The position numbers and the translations under genes are program-made. Below the pieces are notes generated by a model. It was not told the origin of the DNA. It did no database searches and was given only the letters and a program-made list of their open reading frames with translations. Positions 1-7,951 of a stretch of 7,951 bases of DNA are shown here, one piece after another (the first letter of the stretch is position 1; each line of letters opens with the position of its first letter). Origin of the DNA: a virus (lineage: Duplodnaviria; Heunggongvirae; Uroviricota; Caudoviricetes); the IMG/VR virus record IMGVR_UViG_2563366854_000004. One strand, written 5' to 3'.

Positions 1-588
1 GACGGTAAAAGTCTCACCCCGGATGATGTGCGTCCGATGCTTGAACAGATGGTGAAGGAGGCGGTAAGCCATATTCATGTTCCGCGTGATGGTCGTGACT
101 ACGATCCGGATGTTCTGCAGAAGGCGGTTCTGGATGCGGTGAGTGCCCTGCCGGCTCCGCAGGACGGGCGTGATGCCACGGCTCTGGAAATACTCCCCGC
201 CATTGACGATCAAAAATCCTTTCCCCGGGGCACGTATGCCACACACCAGGGCGGACTCTGGCGGGCGTATGAAAAAACGCACGGGATGCGGGGATGGGAA
301 TGCCTGGTTGACGGGGTGGCGGATATTGACGTCAGCATGACGGGTGAGCGGTTGTTCTCTGTGGTGGTCCGGCAGAGCAGTGGCCAGCGTACGGAAAAAA
401 CATTTTCCCTGCCGGTGATGCTCTACCGCGGTGTGTTCAGAGCCGGTGAAACCTACCACCCCGGCGATACGGTGACGTGGGGGGGCTCGCTGTGGCACTG
501 CAACAGTATGACCGAAGATAAACCCGGAGAAGCTCATTCATCAGCCTGGACCCTGGCTGCAAAACGTGGGCGGGATGCAGGAGGCTGA
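1..588 (+). CDS. Phage structural protein of unknown function, 5'-truncated at the window edge (reading frame open from base 1)
   Basis: Frame 1 is open from position 1 to the TGA at 586-588, so the listed 28-588 ORF is only the internal-Met part. The stop lies 2 nt before the next gene's ATG, just after its AGGAGG RBS. The C-terminus (ETYHPGDTVTWGGSLWHCNSMTEDKPGEAHSSAWTL) has the spaced aromatic/Gly pattern of small carbohydrate-binding (CBM5/12-like) modules; that is pattern recognition only. Position upstream of a gp6-like connector gene suggests a head-associated protein. Confidence 0.5.
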   Translation, partial: DGKSLTPDDVRPMLEQMVKEAVSHIHVPRDGRDYDPDVLQKAVLDAVSALPAPQDGRDATALEILPAIDDQKSFPRGTYATHQGGLWRAYEKTHGMRGWECLVDGVADIDVSMTGERLFSVVVRQSSGQRTEKTFSLPVMLYRGVFRAGETYHPGDTVTWGGSLWHCNSMTEDKPGEAHSSAWTLAAKRGRDAGG

Positions 589-590
589 AA

Positions 591-917
591 ATGACGGCAT
601 TACTGACACTGGAAGAGATCAAGGCACATCTGCGTGTCGACCATGACGCGGATGATGACATGCTGATGGACAAGGTTCGTCAGGCTACCGCCGTGCTGCT
701 GGCCTACATTCAGGGCAGCCGGGATAAAGTGATCCGTGAGGACGGTGAACTGATCCCGGGCGAGGCATTAACCCGGATGAAGGGGGCTGCCATGCGACTG
801 ACCGGGATGCTGTACCGGAATCCGGATCTTGCGGAGCGGGAAGAACTGCTTCAGGGGGAGCTGCCGTTTTCTGTTTCCGTGCTGATTTACGATTTGCGTT
901 GTCCGACGGTGTTATGA
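591..917 (+). CDS. Phage head-tail connector protein (HK97 gp6-like)
   Basis: 108 aa. N-terminus MTALLTLEEIKAHLRVDHDADDDMLMDKV matches the hallmark start of the gp6-like head-tail connector family. Strong RBS AGGAGG at 579-584, 6 nt before ATG 591. Confidence 0.75.
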   Translation: MTALLTLEEIKAHLRVDHDADDDMLMDKVRQATAVLLAYIQGSRDKVIREDGELIPGEALTRMKGAAMRLTGMLYRNPDLAEREELLQGELPFSVSVLIYDLRCPTVL

Positions 918-926
918 GGAGGGGGA

Positions 927-1277
927 ATGGCAATATCTGCAGGTCGTCTGACACAGATGATAAGTGTTCTGAACCCGGTGTTAACCCGTAACGCTGCCGG
1001 AGAAATGACGGAAGAATGGGTGTCATGCGGGAAAATTCATGCGGATATCCGAGGCAGGAGCAGCCGGGAGCGGATGCAGTCCGGTGCGGAAATGGCGCAG
1101 GCGGAAATCCGCATCTGGGTGCGCGGTCAGTCCGGTCGGGAAATCACGGCAGCGTCACGACTTCATGTGCTGAGTGGTCCATGGCGTGACCGGATCCTGA
1201 ACGTTGTCGGGCTGCCCGTGCCGGATGCGACCGGCGGGCGTCTGGAAATTCTCTGTCGGCTGGGAGGGGAAAAATGA
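927..1277 (+). CDS. Phage head closure / head-tail adaptor protein
   Basis: 116 aa, directly after the connector gene, with purine-rich RBS GAGGAGGGGG at 916-925. Size and position fit the head-tail joining family. Its stop overlaps the next start (ATGA at 1274-1277). Confidence 0.65.
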   Translation: MAISAGRLTQMISVLNPVLTRNAAGEMTEEWVSCGKIHADIRGRSSRERMQSGAEMAQAEIRIWVRGQSGREITAASRLHVLSGPWRDRILNVVGLPVPDATGGRLEILCRLGGEK

Positions 1278-1720
1278 TCGAAACCCTGCTGGATTTTTCG
1301 GGGCTGGAGGACATCAGCCGCGATTTGCAGCTTCTGAGTGGTGCGGAAAATAACCGGGTGCTGCGTGAGGCAACCCGTGCGGGTGCGAATGTGCTGAAAG
1401 AAGAAGTGGTGTCACGGGCACCGGTACGCAGGGGAAAACTGCGCCGCAATGTGGTGGTCCTTTCCCGGCGCTCCCGCGATGGCGGGATGGAATCCGGTGT
1501 CCATATCCGTGGTGTTAATCCGGACACCGGTAACAGCGATAACACCATGAAGGCGGATAACCCGCGCAATGCTTTCTACTGGCGGTTTGTGGAAATGGGG
1601 ACCGTGAATATGCCACCGCACCCGTTTGTGCGCCCGGCGTTTGATGTGCGCAGTGAACAGGCAGCTCAGGTGGCGATTGCGCGGATGAACCGGGCCATTG
1701 ATGAGGTACTGAGACGATGA
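1274..1720 (+). CDS. HK97 gp10-family phage protein (tail-proximal neck component)
   Basis: 148 aa. ATGA start/stop overlaps at both ends (1274-1277 and 1717-1720) indicate translational coupling. Size and order match the gp10-type gene following the adaptor in HK97-like morphogenesis modules. Confidence 0.6.
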   Translation: MIETLLDFSGLEDISRDLQLLSGAENNRVLREATRAGANVLKEEVVSRAPVRRGKLRRNVVVLSRRSRDGGMESGVHIRGVNPDTGNSDNTMKADNPRNAFYWRFVEMGTVNMPPHPFVRPAFDVRSEQAAQVAIARMNRAIDEVLRR

Positions 1721-2088
1721 CGGAGGCGGATTTGTATCCTCATCTGGCGCATCTTGCCGGCGGGCAGGTGTACCCGTATGTGGTCCCCCTGCTGGATGGC
1801 AGGCCGTCGGTGGCGCTTCCGTGGGTGGTTTTCAGCCTGATTTCATCGGTGTCTGCGGACGTGATGGGCGGGCAGGCGGAGTCCTCAGTGTCGGTGCAGA
1901 TAGACGTTTATGCCGGGACTGTGACGCAGGCGCGTCAGATACGTCAGGACGCCCGTGAAGCCATAATGCTGCTGGCCCCGGGATCCGTCAGTGAAATGCA
2001 GGACTATATTCCGGAAAACCGCTGTTACCGGAAAAAGAAGCCATCGTGGATAACGGTGCCCGCTTTGAGCCGCAGTCAGGTTCCCTGA
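1717..2088 (+). CDS. Tail completion / neck protein (DUF3168-like); C-terminus possibly altered by the adjacent deletion junction
   Basis: 123 aa with ATGA coupling to the upstream gene. Motifs [19 protein letters not shown] and SVQIDVYA resemble the gp11-type family. Its last ~14 codons overlap the start of the J-like ORF in another frame. Confidence 0.5.
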
Positions 2089-3725
2089 ACAGCGTCATCC
2101 CACCGGCAGTACAGCACCTGACGGTGGAGGTGAGTGCAGCTGACGGCCAGTATCTGGCGCAGGCTAAATGGGACACGCCGCGGGTGGTGAAGGGCGTGCG
2201 CTTCAGTCTGCGCCTGACCAGTGGTAAGGGAACGGATGCCAGACTGGTGACCACCGCCATCACCGCAGACACGGAGCACCGTTTCAGCGGCCTGCCGCTC
2301 GGGGAATACACCCTGACGGTGCGGGCGATAAACAGCTATGGCCAGCAGGGTGAACCTGCCACCACCACCTTCCGGATTGCCGCACCGGCAGCACCGTCGC
2401 GGATTGAGCTGACGCCGGGCTATTTTCAGATAACCGCCACGCCGCATCTTGCTGTTTATGACCCGACGGTACAGTTTGAGTTCTGGTTCTCAGAAAAGCG
2501 GATTACCGATATCAGGCAGGTTGAAACCACAGCCCGCTATCTTGGTACGGCGCTGTACTGGATAGCCGCCAGTATCAATATCAAACCGGGCCATGATTAT
2601 TATTTTTACGTTCGCAGTGTGAACACCGTTGGCAAATCGGCATTCGTGGAGGCTGTCGGTCGGGCGAGCGATGATGCGGAAGGTTACCTGGATTTTTTCA
2701 AAGGAGAAATCGGGAAAACACATCTGGCCCAGGAGTTGTGGACGCAGATTGATAACGGTCAGCTTGCGCCGGACCTGGCTGAAATCAGGACGTCCATTAC
2801 GAATGTCAGCAATGAAATCACGCAGACCGTCAATAAAAAACTGGAAGACCAGAGTGCGGCAATCCAGCAGATACAGAAAGTTCAGGTTGATACAAATAAT
2901 AACCTGAACAGCATGTGGGCCGTGAAACTGCAGCAGATGAAGGACGGACGCCTTTATATTGCGGGTATCGGAGTCGGTATTGAGAATACGCCAGCAGGTA
3001 TGCAGAGTCAGGTGCTTCTGGCTGCTGACCGGATTGCGATGATTAATCCTGCGAATGGCAACACAAAGCCGATGTTTGTTGGTCAGGGCGATCAGATATT
3101 CATGAACGACGTGTTCCTGAAACGCCTGACGGCTCCGACCATTACCAGCGGCGGTAATCCTCCGGCATTTTCCCTGACACCGGACGGGCGGCTGACGGCG
3201 AAAAATGCCGATATCAGCGGTAACGTGAATGCGAACTCCGGGACGCTCAACAACGTCACGATTAACGAGAACTGTCGGGTTCTGGGAAAATTGTCCGCGA
3301 ACCAGATTGAAGGCGATCTCGTTAAAACAGTGGGCAAAGCTTTCCCCCGGGACTCCCGTGCACCGGAGCGGTGGCCATCAGGAACCATTACCGTCAGGGT
3401 TTATGACGATCAGCCGTTTGACCGGCAGATTGTTATTCCGGCGGTGGCATTCAGCGGCGCTAAACATGAGAAAGAGCATACTGATATTTACTCCTCATGC
3501 CGTCTGATAGTGCGGAAAAACGGTGCTGAAATTTATAACCGTACCGCGCTGGATAATACGCTGATTTACAGTGGTGTTATTGATATGCCTGCCGGTCACG
3601 GTCACATGACACTGGAGTTTTCGGTGTCAGCATGGCTGGTAAATAACTGGTATCCCACAGCAAGTATCAGCGATTTGCTGGTTGTGGTGATGAAGAAAGC
3701 CACTGCAGGCATCACGATTAGCTGA
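2046..3725 (+). CDS. J: Tail tip host-specificity protein J, C-terminal ~559-aa portion (likely a truncated remnant of a >1100-aa gene)
   Basis: Largest ORF in the window. Contains fibronectin-III-like segments (e.g. [23 protein letters not shown]) typical of the central part of lambda J. It lies immediately upstream of lom, as J does in lambda. The start is a GTG at 2046; this frame is open back only to a stop at 1992-1994, so no N-terminal half is present. Confidence 0.7.
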
Positions 3726-3743
3726 ATTTTATAACCCAGATAC

Positions 3744-3771
3744 GGGCGCCAGAAATGGCGCCTTTTTTATT
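3744..3771 (+). terminator. Rho-independent terminator after J (tJ-like)
   Basis: Perfect GC hairpin GGCGCC (3745-3750), loop AGAAAT, GGCGCC (3757-3762), followed directly by TTTTTTATT (3763-3771). Confidence 0.6.
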
Positions 3772-3792
3772 GCAGAAAAGCGAGAGGTAATT

Positions 3793-4392
3793 ATGCGTAA
3801 ATTATGTGCTGTTATTTTGTCCGCAGTAGTCTGGCAGGTCGCCGCTGCTACGCCAGCGAGTGCAGCAGAACATCAGTCCACGCTGAGCGCGGGGTATCTC
3901 CATGCCTCGACGAACGTTCCCGGTAGTGATGATCTGAACGGGATTAACGTGAAATACCGTTATGAGTTTACGGACGCGCTGGGGCTGATTACGTCCTTCA
4001 GTTATGCCAATGCTGAGGATGAGCAAAAAACGCGCTACAGCGATACCCGCTGGCATGAAGATTCCGTGCGTAACCGCTGGTTCAGCGTGATGGCGGGGCC
4101 GTCTGTGCGCGTGAATGAATGGTTCAGCGCGTATGCGATGGCGGGTGTGGCTTACAGCCGTGTGTCGACTTTCTCCGGGGATTATCTCCGCGTAACTGAC
4201 AACAAGGGGAAAACGCACGATGTGCTGACCGGAAGTGATGACGGTCGCCACAGCAACACGTCTCTGGCGTGGGGGGCTGGCGTGCAGTTTAACCCGACCG
4301 AATCCGTGACCATTGACCTTGCTTATGAAGGTTCCGGTAGTGGCGACTGGCGAACGGATGCATTTATTGTTGGTATCGGATACCGTTTCTGA
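3793..4392 (+). CDS. lom: Lom outer-membrane beta-barrel protein (Ail/Lom/OmpX/PagC family)
   Basis: 199 aa. N-terminal signal peptide MRKLCAVILSAVVWQVAAATPASA, alternating amphipathic strands, conserved GINVKYRYE and YEGSGSGDWRTD motifs, and C-terminal GIGYRF ending in aromatic Phe as in OMP barrels. RBS GAGAGG at 3783-3788. Sits between J and stf as in lambda. Confidence 0.85.
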   Translation: MRKLCAVILSAVVWQVAAATPASAAEHQSTLSAGYLHASTNVPGSDDLNGINVKYRYEFTDALGLITSFSYANAEDEQKTRYSDTRWHEDSVRNRWFSVMAGPSVRVNEWFSAYAMAGVAYSRVSTFSGDYLRVTDNKGKTHDVLTGSDDGRHSNTSLAWGAGVQFNPTESVTIDLAYEGSGSGDWRTDAFIVGIGYRF

Positions 4393-4497
4393 CAACAGAC
4401 GCCGATTTATCTTCTGTAAATATTGTTATGATACGCAGGTTCATCCACCTTATGGGGTGAACTGCGTTTGAGGAAACGTAAAGTTACACTGTCCTGA

Positions 4498-4531
4498 AGC
4501 CCGTGGCGTCACTGCTGCGGGCTTTTTTTAT
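4498..4531 (+). terminator. Rho-independent terminator after lom
   Basis: Stem AGCCCG (4498-4503) pairs with CGGGCT (4518-4523), extendable with G-U pairs to about 10 bp, followed by a run of seven T then ATT. Confidence 0.5.
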
Positions 4532-4543
4532 TGGTGGAAAAGT

Positions 4544-6034
4544 ATGACAGTAAAAATTTCTGGCGTGCTTAAAGATGGCACAGGAAAACCAGTACAGAAC
4601 TGCACCATTGTGCTGAAGGCCAGACGAACCAGCAGCACGGTGGTGGTGAACACGGTGGCCTCTGAAAATCCGGATGAAGCCGGACGTTACAGCATGGATG
4701 TTGAGCATGGTCAGTACAGCGTCACCCTGCTGGTTGAAGGTTTTCCGCCTTCACATGCCGGGACCATTACCGTCTATGAAGGTTCCAGACCAGGTACGCT
4801 GAATGATTTTCTCGGTGCCATACCTTCTGCCCGTAAGGTGAATGGTAAGGCGCTTTCAGCGGATATAACACTGACGCCGAAAGATATTGGTACGCTTAAC
4901 TCAACAACAATGTCATTCAGCGGTGGTGCTGGTTGGTTCAAATTAGCAACGGTAACCATGCCACAGGCGAGTTCTGTTGTTTCAATTACGTTGATTGGTG
5001 GTGCGGGATTTAACGTGGGGTCACCTCAACAGGCAGGTATATCTGAACTTGTTTTGCGTGCAGGTAATGGTAATCCGAAGGGGATTACTGGTGCTTTATG
5101 GCAGCGCACATCGACAGGGTTTACAAATTTTGCCTGGGTCAATACATCTGGTGATACTTACGATATTTACGTTGCAATCGGAAATTATGCGACTGGTGTA
5201 AATATTCAATGGGATTATACCAGTAATGCCAGCGTGACGATTCATACGTCACCAGCATATTCTGCTAATAAGCCGGAAGGGTTAACGGACGGTACAGTTT
5301 ATTCACTCTATACGCCATCAGAGCAGTTTTATCCGCCTGGCGCACCAATCCCGTGGCCATCAGATACCGTTCCGTCTGGCTATGCCCTGATGCAGGGGCA
5401 GACTTTTGACAAATCTGCATACCCGAAACTTGCAGCCGCTTATCCGTCAGGCGTGATCCCTGATATGCGTGGCTGGACGATTAAGGGCAAACCCGCCAGT
5501 GGTCGTGCCGTATTGTCTCAGGAACAGGACGGCATTAAATCGCACACCCACAGCGCCAGCGCATCCAGTACGGATTTGGGGACGAAAAACACATCGTCGT
5601 TTGATTACGGAACCAAATCCACGAATAACACCGGGGCGCATACGCACAGTCTGAGTGGCTCTACGGGGTCTGCCGGTGATCATACTCATGGTAATGGTAT
5701 TCGTTGGCCAGGAGGCGGCGGTTCTGCGTTAGCATTTTATGATGGCGGTGGGTTCACTTATGTCCAGGATTCACAGTATCAAGTAAGCCCGGGGACTTCT
5801 TCCCGTAGATCGTATTATCAACGTATTCAGACACAGTCAGCAGGTGCTCATACCCACTCGCTGTCTGGTACTGCAGCAAGTTCTGGCGCACATGCACATA
5901 CTGTAGGTATTGGTGCGCATACGCACTCCGTTGCGATTGGTTCACATGGACACACCATCACCGTTAACGCTGCTGGTAACGCGGAAAACACCGTCAAAAA
6001 CATCGCATTTAACTATATTGTGAGGCTTGCATAA
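4544..6034 (+). CDS. stf: Side tail fibre protein (lambda Stf-like N-terminal anchor, tail-collar-like middle, His-x-His repeat distal region)
   Basis: 496 aa. N-terminus [22 protein letters not shown] closely resembles the conserved lambda Stf anchor. The middle has a tail-collar-like motif ([39 protein letters not shown]). The distal part has repeated GAHTHS / HxH units. C-terminus [11 protein letters not shown] is typical of fibres that need a Tfa chaperone. Stop overlaps the tfa start (TAATG at 6032-6036). Confidence 0.85.
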
Positions 6035-6618
6035 TGGCATTCAGAATGAGTGAACAAGCACGGACCATAAAAATTTATAATCTGCTGGCCGGAACTAATG
6101 AATTTATTGGTGAAGGTGACGCATATATTCCGCCTCATACAGGTCTGCCAGCAAACAGTACCGATATTGCACCACCAGATATTCCTGCTGGCTTTGTGGC
6201 TGTTTTCAACAGTGATGAGGCATCGTGGCATCTCGTTGAAGACCATCGGGGTAAAACGGTTTATGACGTAGCGTCAGGGGACGAGTTATTTATTTCTGAA
6301 CTCGGTCCGTTACCGGAAAATGTTACCTGGTTATCGCCGGAAGGGGAGTTTCAGAAGTGGAACGGCACAGCCTGGGTGAAGGATACGGAAGCAGAAAAAA
6401 TGTTCCGGATCCGGGAGGCGGAAGAAACAAAAAACAACCTGATGCAGGTAGCCAGTGAGCATATTGCGCCGCTTCAGGATGCTGCAGATCTGGAAATTGC
6501 AACGGAGGAAGAAACCTCATTGCTGGAAGCCTGGAAAAAGTATCGGGTGTTGCTGAACCGTGTTGATACATCAACTGCACCTGATATTGAGTGGCCTACG
6601 AACCCTGTCAGGGAGTAA
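6034..6618 (+). CDS. tfa: Tail fibre assembly protein (Tfa chaperone)
   Basis: 194 aa, immediately after and overlapping stf. Sequence ([24 protein letters not shown] ... [25 protein letters not shown]) matches the lambda Tfa family in size and termini. Confidence 0.85.
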
Positions 6619-6667
6619 TCATTGGGATTATGCCGCAGCACGTCTTAAGCAAGAACGTGCTGCGGTT
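6454..6667. repeat. Direct repeat copy 1: tfa 3' end plus terminal hairpin
   Basis: Aligns by eye with 7502-7716 at roughly 85-90 percent identity (e.g. TTGCGCC ... GATCTGGAAAT ... GCAACGGAGGAAGAAA ... TATCGGGT ... CGTGTTGATACATCAACTGCACC ... CCTGTCAGGGAGTAATCATTGGGATTATGCCGCAG). Homology ends right after the hairpin. Confidence 0.8.
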
Positions 6668-6683
6668 GGATGCTATTTTTTCC
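6633..6683 (+). terminator. Hairpin with downstream T-run after tfa; possible terminator and module boundary
   Basis: 10-bp perfect inverted repeat CCGCAGCACG (6633-6642) / CGTGCTGCGG (6656-6665) with a 13-nt loop, then TTGGATGCTATTTTTT. The T-run is not directly adjacent to the stem, so the terminator call is tentative. An imperfect copy of the hairpin recurs at 7681-7714. Confidence 0.4.
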
Positions 6684-7341
6684 CTGAAGCGGAAAACATT
6701 ACTACAGTACCTTGAACCTTGGTTTTAACATTCTCGAAATGCTCTGAGAGTATATGTGTTAAGCCTTCTTCGGAATCTTTTGTGTTTGAAAAGATGCCTT
6801 TCTGATTGTAAATGCGCATCAGTTTTTGACCGAAGCTATTGTGCACAACTCCATCGCCAAGAATTGTGGCTCCGTATAGAGTTCCATCGTCAGTTAAGGC
6901 CTGCGCCGCATTGCGTATTACACAGCTTTTTGTAGATATATTTCCAGGCAGGCAGTGAAGAAGGTAAAACATGGAAATGGAATCAAATTGACCATGTAAC
7001 GCCGCGGGATAAGGTTCAAAAACATCATGGCTAATTTTATGTTTAATTTTTGATTCCCCAGCCCTTGTAGATGCCGCGTTCAGGCTAGCTTCGTTCAAAT
7101 CCATTAAAGATATCAGACTACTCTCAGGTACGTGAGTAAGGTAAAACCCAGTTCCAACACCAATATCCAGATGGTTGTTACCTACATGTTCCAGAAAGTG
7201 TGGAAGAAGGTGTTCCTTTGTAGGACATCCCCATGCAAGCCGATTTGATACTCCCAAAACCCACCAGTCATAAAGCTTTAGGGTAAGTGGTGTGTAAATT
7301 TTAGCCCCATCATCTGTGTTTTTTTTCATTGATTTCACCAT
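6673..7341 (-). CDS. Class I SAM-dependent methyltransferase (small-molecule/RNA type, not an obvious DNA methyltransferase); cargo gene of unknown function
   Basis: 222 aa on the opposite strand to all phage late genes. Motif I LDIGVGTGFY (glycine-rich SAM loop), acidic end of the next strand (ISLMDLN) and motif-II-like ISMFYLLHC. No DPPY/NPPY motif. Region is visibly AT-rich against GC-rich flanks. From memory it resembles uncharacterised methyltransferases annotated in E. coli cryptic prophages (ybcY / ymfD type); not verified. The true start may be the second ATG (7327-7329), which has a GGTGA Shine-Dalgarno 5 nt upstream. Confidence 0.8.
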   Translation of the reverse strand: MVKSMKKNTDDGAKIYTPLTLKLYDWWVLGVSNRLAWGCPTKEHLLPHFLEHVGNNHLDIGVGTGFYLTHVPESSLISLMDLNEASLNAASTRAGESKIKHKISHDVFEPYPAALHGQFDSISMFYLLHCLPGNISTKSCVIRNAAQALTDDGTLYGATILGDGVVHNSFGQKLMRIYNQKGIFSNTKDSEEGLTHILSEHFENVKTKVQGTVVMFSASGKK

Positions 7342-7370
7342 GTTATAGTTTTATTTGTGAATTAAATCAA
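7342..7370 (-). promoter_or_regulatory. Candidate sigma70 promoter for the methyltransferase gene
   Basis: Read on the minus strand: TTGATT (-35; + strand 7365-7370), 17-nt spacer, TATAAC (-10; + strand 7342-7347). The predicted transcript start falls near the first ATG, favouring the second ATG as the initiator. Confidence 0.4.
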
Positions 7371-7397
7371 TTATGGCGATGAATTACAAGGGGTTAA

Positions 7398-7718
7398 ATG
7401 CTGCCGCAGCATAGCGATATTGAAATAGCCTGGTATGCTTCGATACAGCAGGAGCCGAATGGCTGGAAGACCGTCACCACACAGTTCTACATCCAGGAAT
7501 TCAGTGAGTATATTGCGCCACTGCAGGATGCTGTAGATCTGGAAATCGCAACGGAGGAAGAAAGATCGTTGCTGGAGGCATGGAATAAATATCGGGTATT
7601 GTTGAATCGTGTTGATACATCAACTGCACCGATATTGAGTGGCCTGCAAATCCTGTCAGGGAGTAATCATTGGGATTATGCCGCAGACACGTCGTATGCA
7701 GGAACGTGCTGCGGTTAG
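7398..7718 (+). pseudogene. Tail fibre assembly protein remnant: unrelated ~35-aa N-terminus fused to a frameshifted Tfa C-terminal segment
   Basis: 106-aa ORF. Residues [42 protein letters not shown] match the tfa C-terminal region ([42 protein letters not shown]); the frame then shifts so the ending differs from intact Tfa. The N-terminal part has no similarity to Tfa. Confidence 0.55.
7502..7716. repeat. Direct repeat copy 2: diverged, frameshifted tfa 3' end plus imperfect hairpin
   Basis: Same orientation as copy 1. It has a 1-bp deletion relative to copy 1 (CACC-GATATTGAG versus CACCTGATATTGAG), changing the frame, and a 1-nt insertion in the 5' hairpin arm (CCGCAGACACG). Confidence 0.8.
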
Positions 7719-7780
7719 TTTGTGAGCTTTCGATAGTGGTTGTTATTTTTGCCCTTATTTGTTCCGGAGGCCATGGTTCA

Positions 7781-7951
7781 ATGGTCCGTCTGCCCCCTGT
7801 GGTGATGTCAGCAAAATCAGCCACTGCGCGAACCACAATAGCCCGGGAAGATGCTGAAGATCACCAGGTAAAGCTGTCAGCGCAGAAACTGGAAGAACTG
7901 CTCGCATCAATGGTTAAGGATGAGGTTGATCGCAATGATGGGATTTATTGA
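7781..7951 (+). CDS. Small hypothetical protein (~56 aa), function unknown
   Basis: ATG at 7781 preceded by GGAGG (7766-7770) at 10-nt spacing; ends with TGA exactly at the window end. Charged, likely helical C-terminus (KLSAQKLEELLASMVKDEVDRNDGIY). The longer TTG-initiated version (7670-7951) starts inside the tfa remnant and is not favoured. No family recognised. Confidence 0.35.
   Translation: MVRLPPVVMSAKSATARTTIAREDAEDHQVKLSAQKLEELLASMVKDEVDRNDGIY

Follow-up and report, generated by a model that had tools for sequence, protein, structure and literature searches.

The region at positions 1950–2100 of the 7,951-nucleotide stretch of DNA analysed here (the window) is, with high confidence, a scar that a single internal deletion left in a lambdoid prophage at the ompW'/yciE/trp site of Escherichia coli. 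In the proposed event, two copies of the pentanucleotide TACCG would have been joined and the 9,283 bp between them lost, a size that is relative to a close relative, the E41-1 prophage (98.2% identity over the surviving part of J), and not to the exact ancestor. The 5-bp junction points to homology-independent (illegitimate) recombination, for example replication slippage or microhomology-mediated end joining. Deletion between short homologies can proceed independently of RecA in E. coli, and our assignment of the event to this class leans on such general knowledge together with the 5-bp junction. Both open reading frames that cross the scar would accordingly be by-products of the deletion: a tail-completion protein with a scrambled C-terminus, and a fragment of the tail protein J that lacks translation signals of its own.

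Results

Two arms meet at a 5-bp direct repeat

The window is identical to bases 8285–16235 of locus L004, on scaffold KB732936.1 of assembly GCA_000351985.1. On this source scaffold, lysis genes are followed by terminase, capsid, portal and connector genes, the scar, lom, stf and tfa, and then by a methyltransferase gene, a tfa fragment, yciE, yciF, yciG, trpA and trpB. The prophage combines HK97-type head genes with lambda-type tail genes, and its chromosomal site (ompW'/yciE/trp) is shared by the source scaffold, E41-1 and UTI89.

The left arm (window 1–2030) matches the head-tail genes of a prophage in the Shiga toxin-producing strain E2855 with one mismatch in 2,030 bases (at 1741), and is collinear, almost without a difference, with the HK97-type head-tail regions of many lambdoid prophages among 5,426 complete E. 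coli genomes. The right arm (2026–7951) is collinear with the 3' half of J followed by lom, stf and tfa, its first part (2026–2160) being 100% identical to J genes in complete E. coli genomes. Base-by-base extension of the arms against E2855 and E41-1, together with the ends of the BLAST arms, places the deletion junction (no strand) at the TACCG of 2026–2030. In E2855, the extension shows TACCG at both parental sites within unrelated flanks, where the window keeps a single copy, and when E41-1 is the reference the arms again stop at this 5-bp overlap. The junction joins nt 314 of the tail-completion gene to nt 1775 of J; the tail-completion gene continues for 31 nt past one TACCG copy, and the other copy is J nt 1775–1779. 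A microhomology of at least 5 bp would be expected at a random junction with P = 0.0046. Neither insertion sequence (IS) DNA nor extended homology between the arms was found at the junction. A short direct repeat at both breakpoints, one retained copy and no IS are together what a microhomology-mediated deletion leaves behind. An Rfam scan gave no match near the junction, and the minus-strand open reading frames at 1988–2311 and 2076–2447, which are antisense to J, had no Pfam match.

The last head-tail gene is truncated

To the left of the scar, all on the plus strand, lie the 3' end of the portal gene (1–588; annotated as phage portal protein in intact relatives), an intact gp6-like head-tail connector gene (591–917; PF05135, Phage_connect_1), an intact head closure or head completion gene (927–1277; PF05521, Phage_HCP, and the annotation of a relative), an intact gene of the HK97 gp10 family (1274–1720; PF04883, HK97-gp10_like, and again the annotation of a relative) and a truncated tail-completion gene of the gp17 type (1717–2088; PF11367, Tail_completion_gp17, and BLASTP, with a DNA match that ends at 2030). 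A gap of 10 N directly left of window base 1 in the source scaffold explains the apparent break in the portal gene, and a split of that gene by mutation was rejected.

An initial reading made from the sequence alone had taken 591–2088 as a head-tail joining gene set. Its four open reading frames do match the expected families, but the last of them is not intact. Codons 1–105 of the 123-aa product are native and codons 106–123 are J DNA read out of frame. Compared by BLASTP with an intact 114-aa tail-completion protein, the product is identical up to R105 and then diverges, the native last nine residues being replaced by 18 unrelated ones. The C-terminus, for which comparison with intact homologues had been proposed, is therefore non-native after residue 105, and the product does not qualify as an intact member of PF11367, whose native length in close homologues is 114 aa.

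The J remnant consists of distal domains

The J remnant (J') runs from a GTG at 2046 to 3725 on the plus strand and encodes 559 aa, J codons 599–1157, as determined from Pfam matches and alignments (domain names after PMC10721106). The J-derived DNA begins upstream of this GTG, at window 2026. As had been read from the sequence, the J' frame overlaps the 1717–2088 frame by 43 nt in a different frame and is shut upstream by a TGA at 1992–1994; the first in-frame ATG, GTG or TTG after that stop is GTG 2046.

Pfam finds only distal J domains in the product, namely Ig_J, Ig_J_second, Phage_Tail_Tip and Ig_GpJ_C (PF24421, PF24489, PF09327 and PF12421, all full length, E = 1e-31 to 1e-41). Against the J of E41-1 (1157 aa), the product aligns with residues 599–1157 at 98% identity, and against lambda J (1132 aa; PDB 8IYK) the alignment likewise starts at residue 599. 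Its content is FNIII-1, FNIII-2, the central fibre and the receptor-binding domain, in agreement with the earlier claim that only the C-terminal part of J is present. The Pfam scan found no hub domain in the 559-aa frame: the FNIII-A_GpJ and Phage-tail_3 or HDII–HDIV domains, about 600 aa, are absent. PF13550 is found in longer J proteins, and in the N-terminal part of a frameshifted J it is accompanied by PF24801. In the lambda tail tip, four hub domains lead through a linker to FNIII-1, FNIII-2, a helix bundle, the central fibre and the receptor-binding domain (PMC10721106). Because the Ig_J match begins at residue 11 of the 559-aa frame, this layout places the break in or near the linker between HDIV and FNIII-1, with all hub domains lost.

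The comparison with lambda J (8IYK, 8XCJ, 9WCA) is thus one of close likeness from residue 599 to within one residue of the C-terminus, while the hub domains, by which J is incorporated into the tail tip, are present only in lambda J. The upstream context of a functional J is missing as well, since J' is directly preceded by the truncated tail-completion gene, and tape-measure, M, L, K and I genes are absent from the 20-kb source locus. Lacking the hub domains, J' cannot function as J, and we infer that a tail tip could not incorporate it, even if another phage provided that tip. The C-terminal 294 aa (window 2841–3725) score 403 bits against the 'A8 gpJ 713' chain (9wca) and 330 against lambda J; judged from sequence, the receptor of the J' receptor-binding domain (3330–3725) may differ from that of lambda.

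Many other 559-aa 'J' entries exist in databases, one of them occurring on 887 contigs. A distinct short J family was nevertheless rejected as the origin of J': the 559-aa entries whose contexts were looked up (two among many) proved to be contig starts, a frameshifted J or a rearrangement, and the J DNA of the window itself extends upstream of the GTG to 2026. The contigs behind these entries mostly begin 68–207 nt before the GTG. Four contigs (L017–L019 and L021) begin at one identical point in J, 68 nt before the GTG and 48 nt upstream of the breakpoint; this shared start may be a mosaic boundary at which the J copies of multi-prophage genomes cease to be nearly identical.

The missing tail genes are present in intact relatives

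Both arms occur within one prophage in E41-1 (NZ_CP028483.1), where they are 9,283 bp apart with no IS between them, and in E2855, where they are 11,101 bp apart and the tape-measure gene contains an IS91-family element. Relative to E41-1, about ten tail genes are missing from the window. The lost DNA comprises the final 31 nt of the tail-completion gene, the major tail subunit gene, the G and T tail assembly chaperone genes, the tape-measure gene, homologues of M, L, K and I, a spacer of ~340 bp and J nt 1–1774 (codons 1–591). On the source scaffold, no tail-shaft or tip-assembly genes were found within ~8 kb upstream or ~4 kb downstream of the window, which speaks against their survival nearby in rearranged order.

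The E41-1 (ST131-type) prophage resembles that of the window in chromosomal site, in gene order and in both arms, at 98–100% identity: 99.95% over the left arm, 98.2% over the J' region and 99.8–100% farther right. It adjoins ompW' and trpA, and the right end of the window, including the methyltransferase gene and the tfa fragment, is found there at 99.8% identity. It differs in keeping all tail genes and a full 1157-aa J, in an ISEc12 inserted in lom, and in its stf/tfa invertible segment. The arms are thus collinear with intact relatives, genes are missing between them, and the junction recurs in independent data; this upholds the internal deletion of tail genes and of the 5' half of J that the sequence-only reading had proposed.

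The same relatives bear on a second account of the junction, in which recombination between prophages joined an HK97-type head module to the distal tail module of another resident prophage. The UTI89 prophage lends this account some substance, since it lies at the same site, has lambda-type head genes, and matches the right arm at 93.8% identity over 2026–4821 and at 99.9% beyond; two head types thus occur with this tail end. However, E41-1 and E2855 already unite this head module with J and lom, the former at the same site, so that a single internal deletion suffices, and the 5 bp that the arms have in common at the junction argue against homologous exchange. We therefore consider inter-prophage recombination very improbable, and retain a deletion within one prophage as the preferred explanation.

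The junction recurs in separately assembled data

The 123-aa fusion frame was found on nine contigs by exact look-up, and seven assemblies (four from NCBI and three Logan assemblies of SRA data) carry the junction 50-mer without change. None of the 5,426 complete E. coli genomes had the junction (no place covering at least 80% of 1900–2160), and its exact 37-mer was found neither in GTDB species-representative genomes nor in JGI metagenome contigs; what revealed it was solely an exact search with the 123-aa fusion sequence. Over as much as 6.5 kb, three contigs that carry the junction match the window at 100% identity. Since the junction-bearing sequences differ by 0–1 substitution over that length, the deletion is recent, and the divergence among them is too small for selection on J' to be read.

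These occurrences also bear on whether the junction is an artefact of assembly or scaffolding, with repeated J copies from several prophages mis-joined in a draft. The source is indeed a draft scaffold with an N gap just 2 kb to the left of the junction, and several contigs begin inside J shortly upstream of the GTG, as if short-read assemblies may break in J. Yet seven data sets, each assembled separately, contain the same 50-mer, the 5 bp common to the arms are too few for an assembler to join them, and the junction lies inside a contig, away from the N gap. An artefact is extremely improbable on this evidence, and we treat the junction as a genuine deletion scar.

Expression signals at the scar are at background level

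It had been suggested that the J fragment could still be expressed from its GTG start. The 20 nt before GTG 2046 have a predicted pairing of −3.5 kcal/mol with the 3' end of 16S rRNA, at the 42nd percentile of all window positions (window mean −3.2), as against −4.9 to −12.8 kcal/mol for the seven other gene starts tested for Shine–Dalgarno pairing. No promoter-like site was found on the plus strand in window 1–4600. The frame 1717–2088 stops 40 nt past GTG 2046, which makes ordinary termination–reinitiation coupling unlikely. Expression of J' from GTG 2046 is thus not supported by the signals in the sequence, with pairing at background level and no plus-strand promoter-like site; low-level expression would be compatible with such weak signals.

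Separately, we observed that the deletion has put a G-AAA-AAG motif (2031–2037) in the frame of the truncated tail-completion gene. We take this motif to resemble the dnaX-type slippery site A-AAA-AAG. As pure speculation, a −1 ribosomal slip at 2031–2037 would enter the J frame and yield a gp17'-J' fusion protein.

Genes distal to J'

Downstream of J', lom (3793–4392, plus strand) is intact and encodes an Ail/Lom outer-membrane protein (PF06316, full length, E = 9e-125). The side tail fibre gene stf (4544–6034, plus strand; 496 aa) was compared with the 1035-aa allele of UTI89, relative to which 1,617 nt (539 codons) are missing in frame at window 4821; the microhomology at this point is ~1 bp, and GCA_903975105.1 has 1,485 nt of other sequence there. 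The tail fibre assembly gene tfa (6034–6618, plus strand; PF02413) is followed by a gene for a class I SAM-dependent methyltransferase (6673–7341, minus strand), which lies between tfa and a second, partial tfa copy (7398–7718, plus strand; 7502–7716 is 89% identical to 6453–6667). The arrangement of methyltransferase gene and partial tfa is also found in UTI89, E41-1 and AST198. A full-length Rfam match to IS009 (6377–6575, plus strand, 224 bits) falls wholly inside the tfa coding sequence, and probably reflects conservation of that coding sequence and not a separate RNA gene.

Further losses and parallel rearrangements

Several junction-bearing contigs have lost additional DNA. Two of them (L006 and L010) lack 825–1558, 2970–3648 and 5089–5850, the second of these losses shifting the frame of J' and reducing it to 319 aa; these deletions of 734, 679 and 762 bp have overlaps of 3–6 bp, and are either real or artefacts of one data set. 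A third (L009) lacks 3286–5080 (1,795 bp), with J' fused to stf. The scar-carrying lineage is thus still losing DNA in the same region.

Other genomes carry independent rearrangements of this prophage family. In AST198 (NZ_AP043606.1), 8,606 bp are gone and nt 94 of the major tail gene is joined to J nt 1713 at a 7-bp microhomology (L002, 8939–8945), ~60 nt from the J breakpoint of the window. It resembles the window in its site, in the deletion of tail genes at a microhomology and in the start of its J fragment, ~60 nt upstream of that of the window; it differs in a left break within the major tail gene, in lambda-type head genes and in the J break itself (nt 1713 versus 1775). NCBI annotates the AST198 J fragment as an incomplete pseudogene. 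Because this deletion is independent, events of this type are recurrent. In GCA_903975105.1, everything between the early region (int, dicB, hok) and J nt 631 is gone, and the J' that now adjoins the early region, 940 aa long, begins at that nucleotide (L022, 9980–12823). Its J'-lom DNA is 100% identical to window 2026–4821, which identifies it as a separate deletion from a near-identical ancestor. Two assemblies have an inversion that ends at about J nt 1585, and one has a frameshifted J. In the former (L013 and L014, 5289–9791) the rearrangement is complex: the inverted segment extends between the tape-measure gene (3' end) and J nt ~1586, with the gene for the terminase small subunit beside it and J', on the plus strand, after it. 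Three rearrangements, including that of the window, are shown to lie at ompW'/yciE/trp; the contig with the frameshifted J stops short of the host flank.

Of the four events, all within J nt 631–1775, three lie no more than 190 nt apart. This clustering does not establish a hotspot of breakage in J, because one of the three clustered events was found through its 559-aa frame.

Discussion

The prophage has kept its lysis, terminase, capsid, portal and connector genes. With the tail-tube genes, the tip-assembly genes and the hub-forming half of J lost, it would be unable to make tails alone. Since the genes lost are essential for lambda tail assembly, we infer that it does not form infectious tailed particles, although a co-resident lambdoid prophage could supply tails in trans, as is reported for defective prophages of O157 (PMC2669165).

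A tail-defective prophage of this kind has counterparts among the Sp prophages of O157 Sakai, lambdoid elements with very similar morphogenesis genes in which head, tail or host-specificity genes are damaged by deletions, frameshifts and IS insertions; defective prophages of that strain were still packaged and transferred, for which the authors credit interactions among its prophages (Asadulghani et al. 2009, PMC2669165). The cryptic Rac prophage of E. coli K-12 (ynaA-lomR-stfR-tfaR) has likewise lost most morphogenesis genes and kept distal lom, stf and tfa; it differs in having no head genes, and the frame before lomR, ynaA, is a tape-measure-domain remnant. As a candidate for an analogous J remnant, ynaA was rejected, since its sequence is not similar to J' and its annotation is that of a tape-measure-domain protein; the analogy with Rac is thus a loose one. 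Temperate phages gain DNA from defective prophages by relaxed homologous recombination, as shown for the stf and tfa genes of Rac and Qin (PMC3945230), and J' could therefore act passively as a recombination substrate.

Such capture also belongs to an alternative in which the C-terminal half of J, with lom, stf and tfa, has been kept as a useful module. The window, AST198, GCA_903975105.1 and the inversion at about J nt 1585 all keep the 3' part of J together with lom; the break, in a linker, cuts through no domain; the structure of an isolated J fragment that begins at residue 713 is known (9wca); and temperate phages do acquire DNA from defective prophages (PMC3945230). Set against this are the background-level pairing at GTG 2046, the strand of which has no promoter-like site, and the later deletions by which J' has been frameshifted or fused in relatives with the same junction. 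Moreover, J-derived protein entries (P0040, P0010) led to two of the four events, which makes the agreement among them in part a product of ascertainment, and a role as recombination substrate needs no selection on the reading frame. Retention of the module as useful is hence very unlikely, as is, to the same degree, a role for it as an expressed receptor-binding protein or as a host-range store for incoming lambdoid phages. The composite proposal, that J'-lom-stf-tfa is retained as a capturable host-range cassette or for a low-level product, including a gp17'-J' slip fusion, we hold to be highly unlikely. We continue to favour a single internal deletion, of which J' would be a by-product.

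As such, the scar is an ordinary instance of routine microhomology-mediated prophage decay, and new at most is the junction itself, in a rare lineage. In practical terms, the 123-aa and 559-aa frames, the latter now named 'host specificity protein J', should be relabelled as pseudogene remnants, and the prophage should be classed as tail-defective. Taken together, the prophages at ompW'/trp form a natural series of independent deletions in which the junctions are resolved to the base (microhomologies of 5 and 7 bp) and secondary losses continue. They may offer a compact example for asking how such prophages decay and why their distal J-lom-stf end tends to persist.
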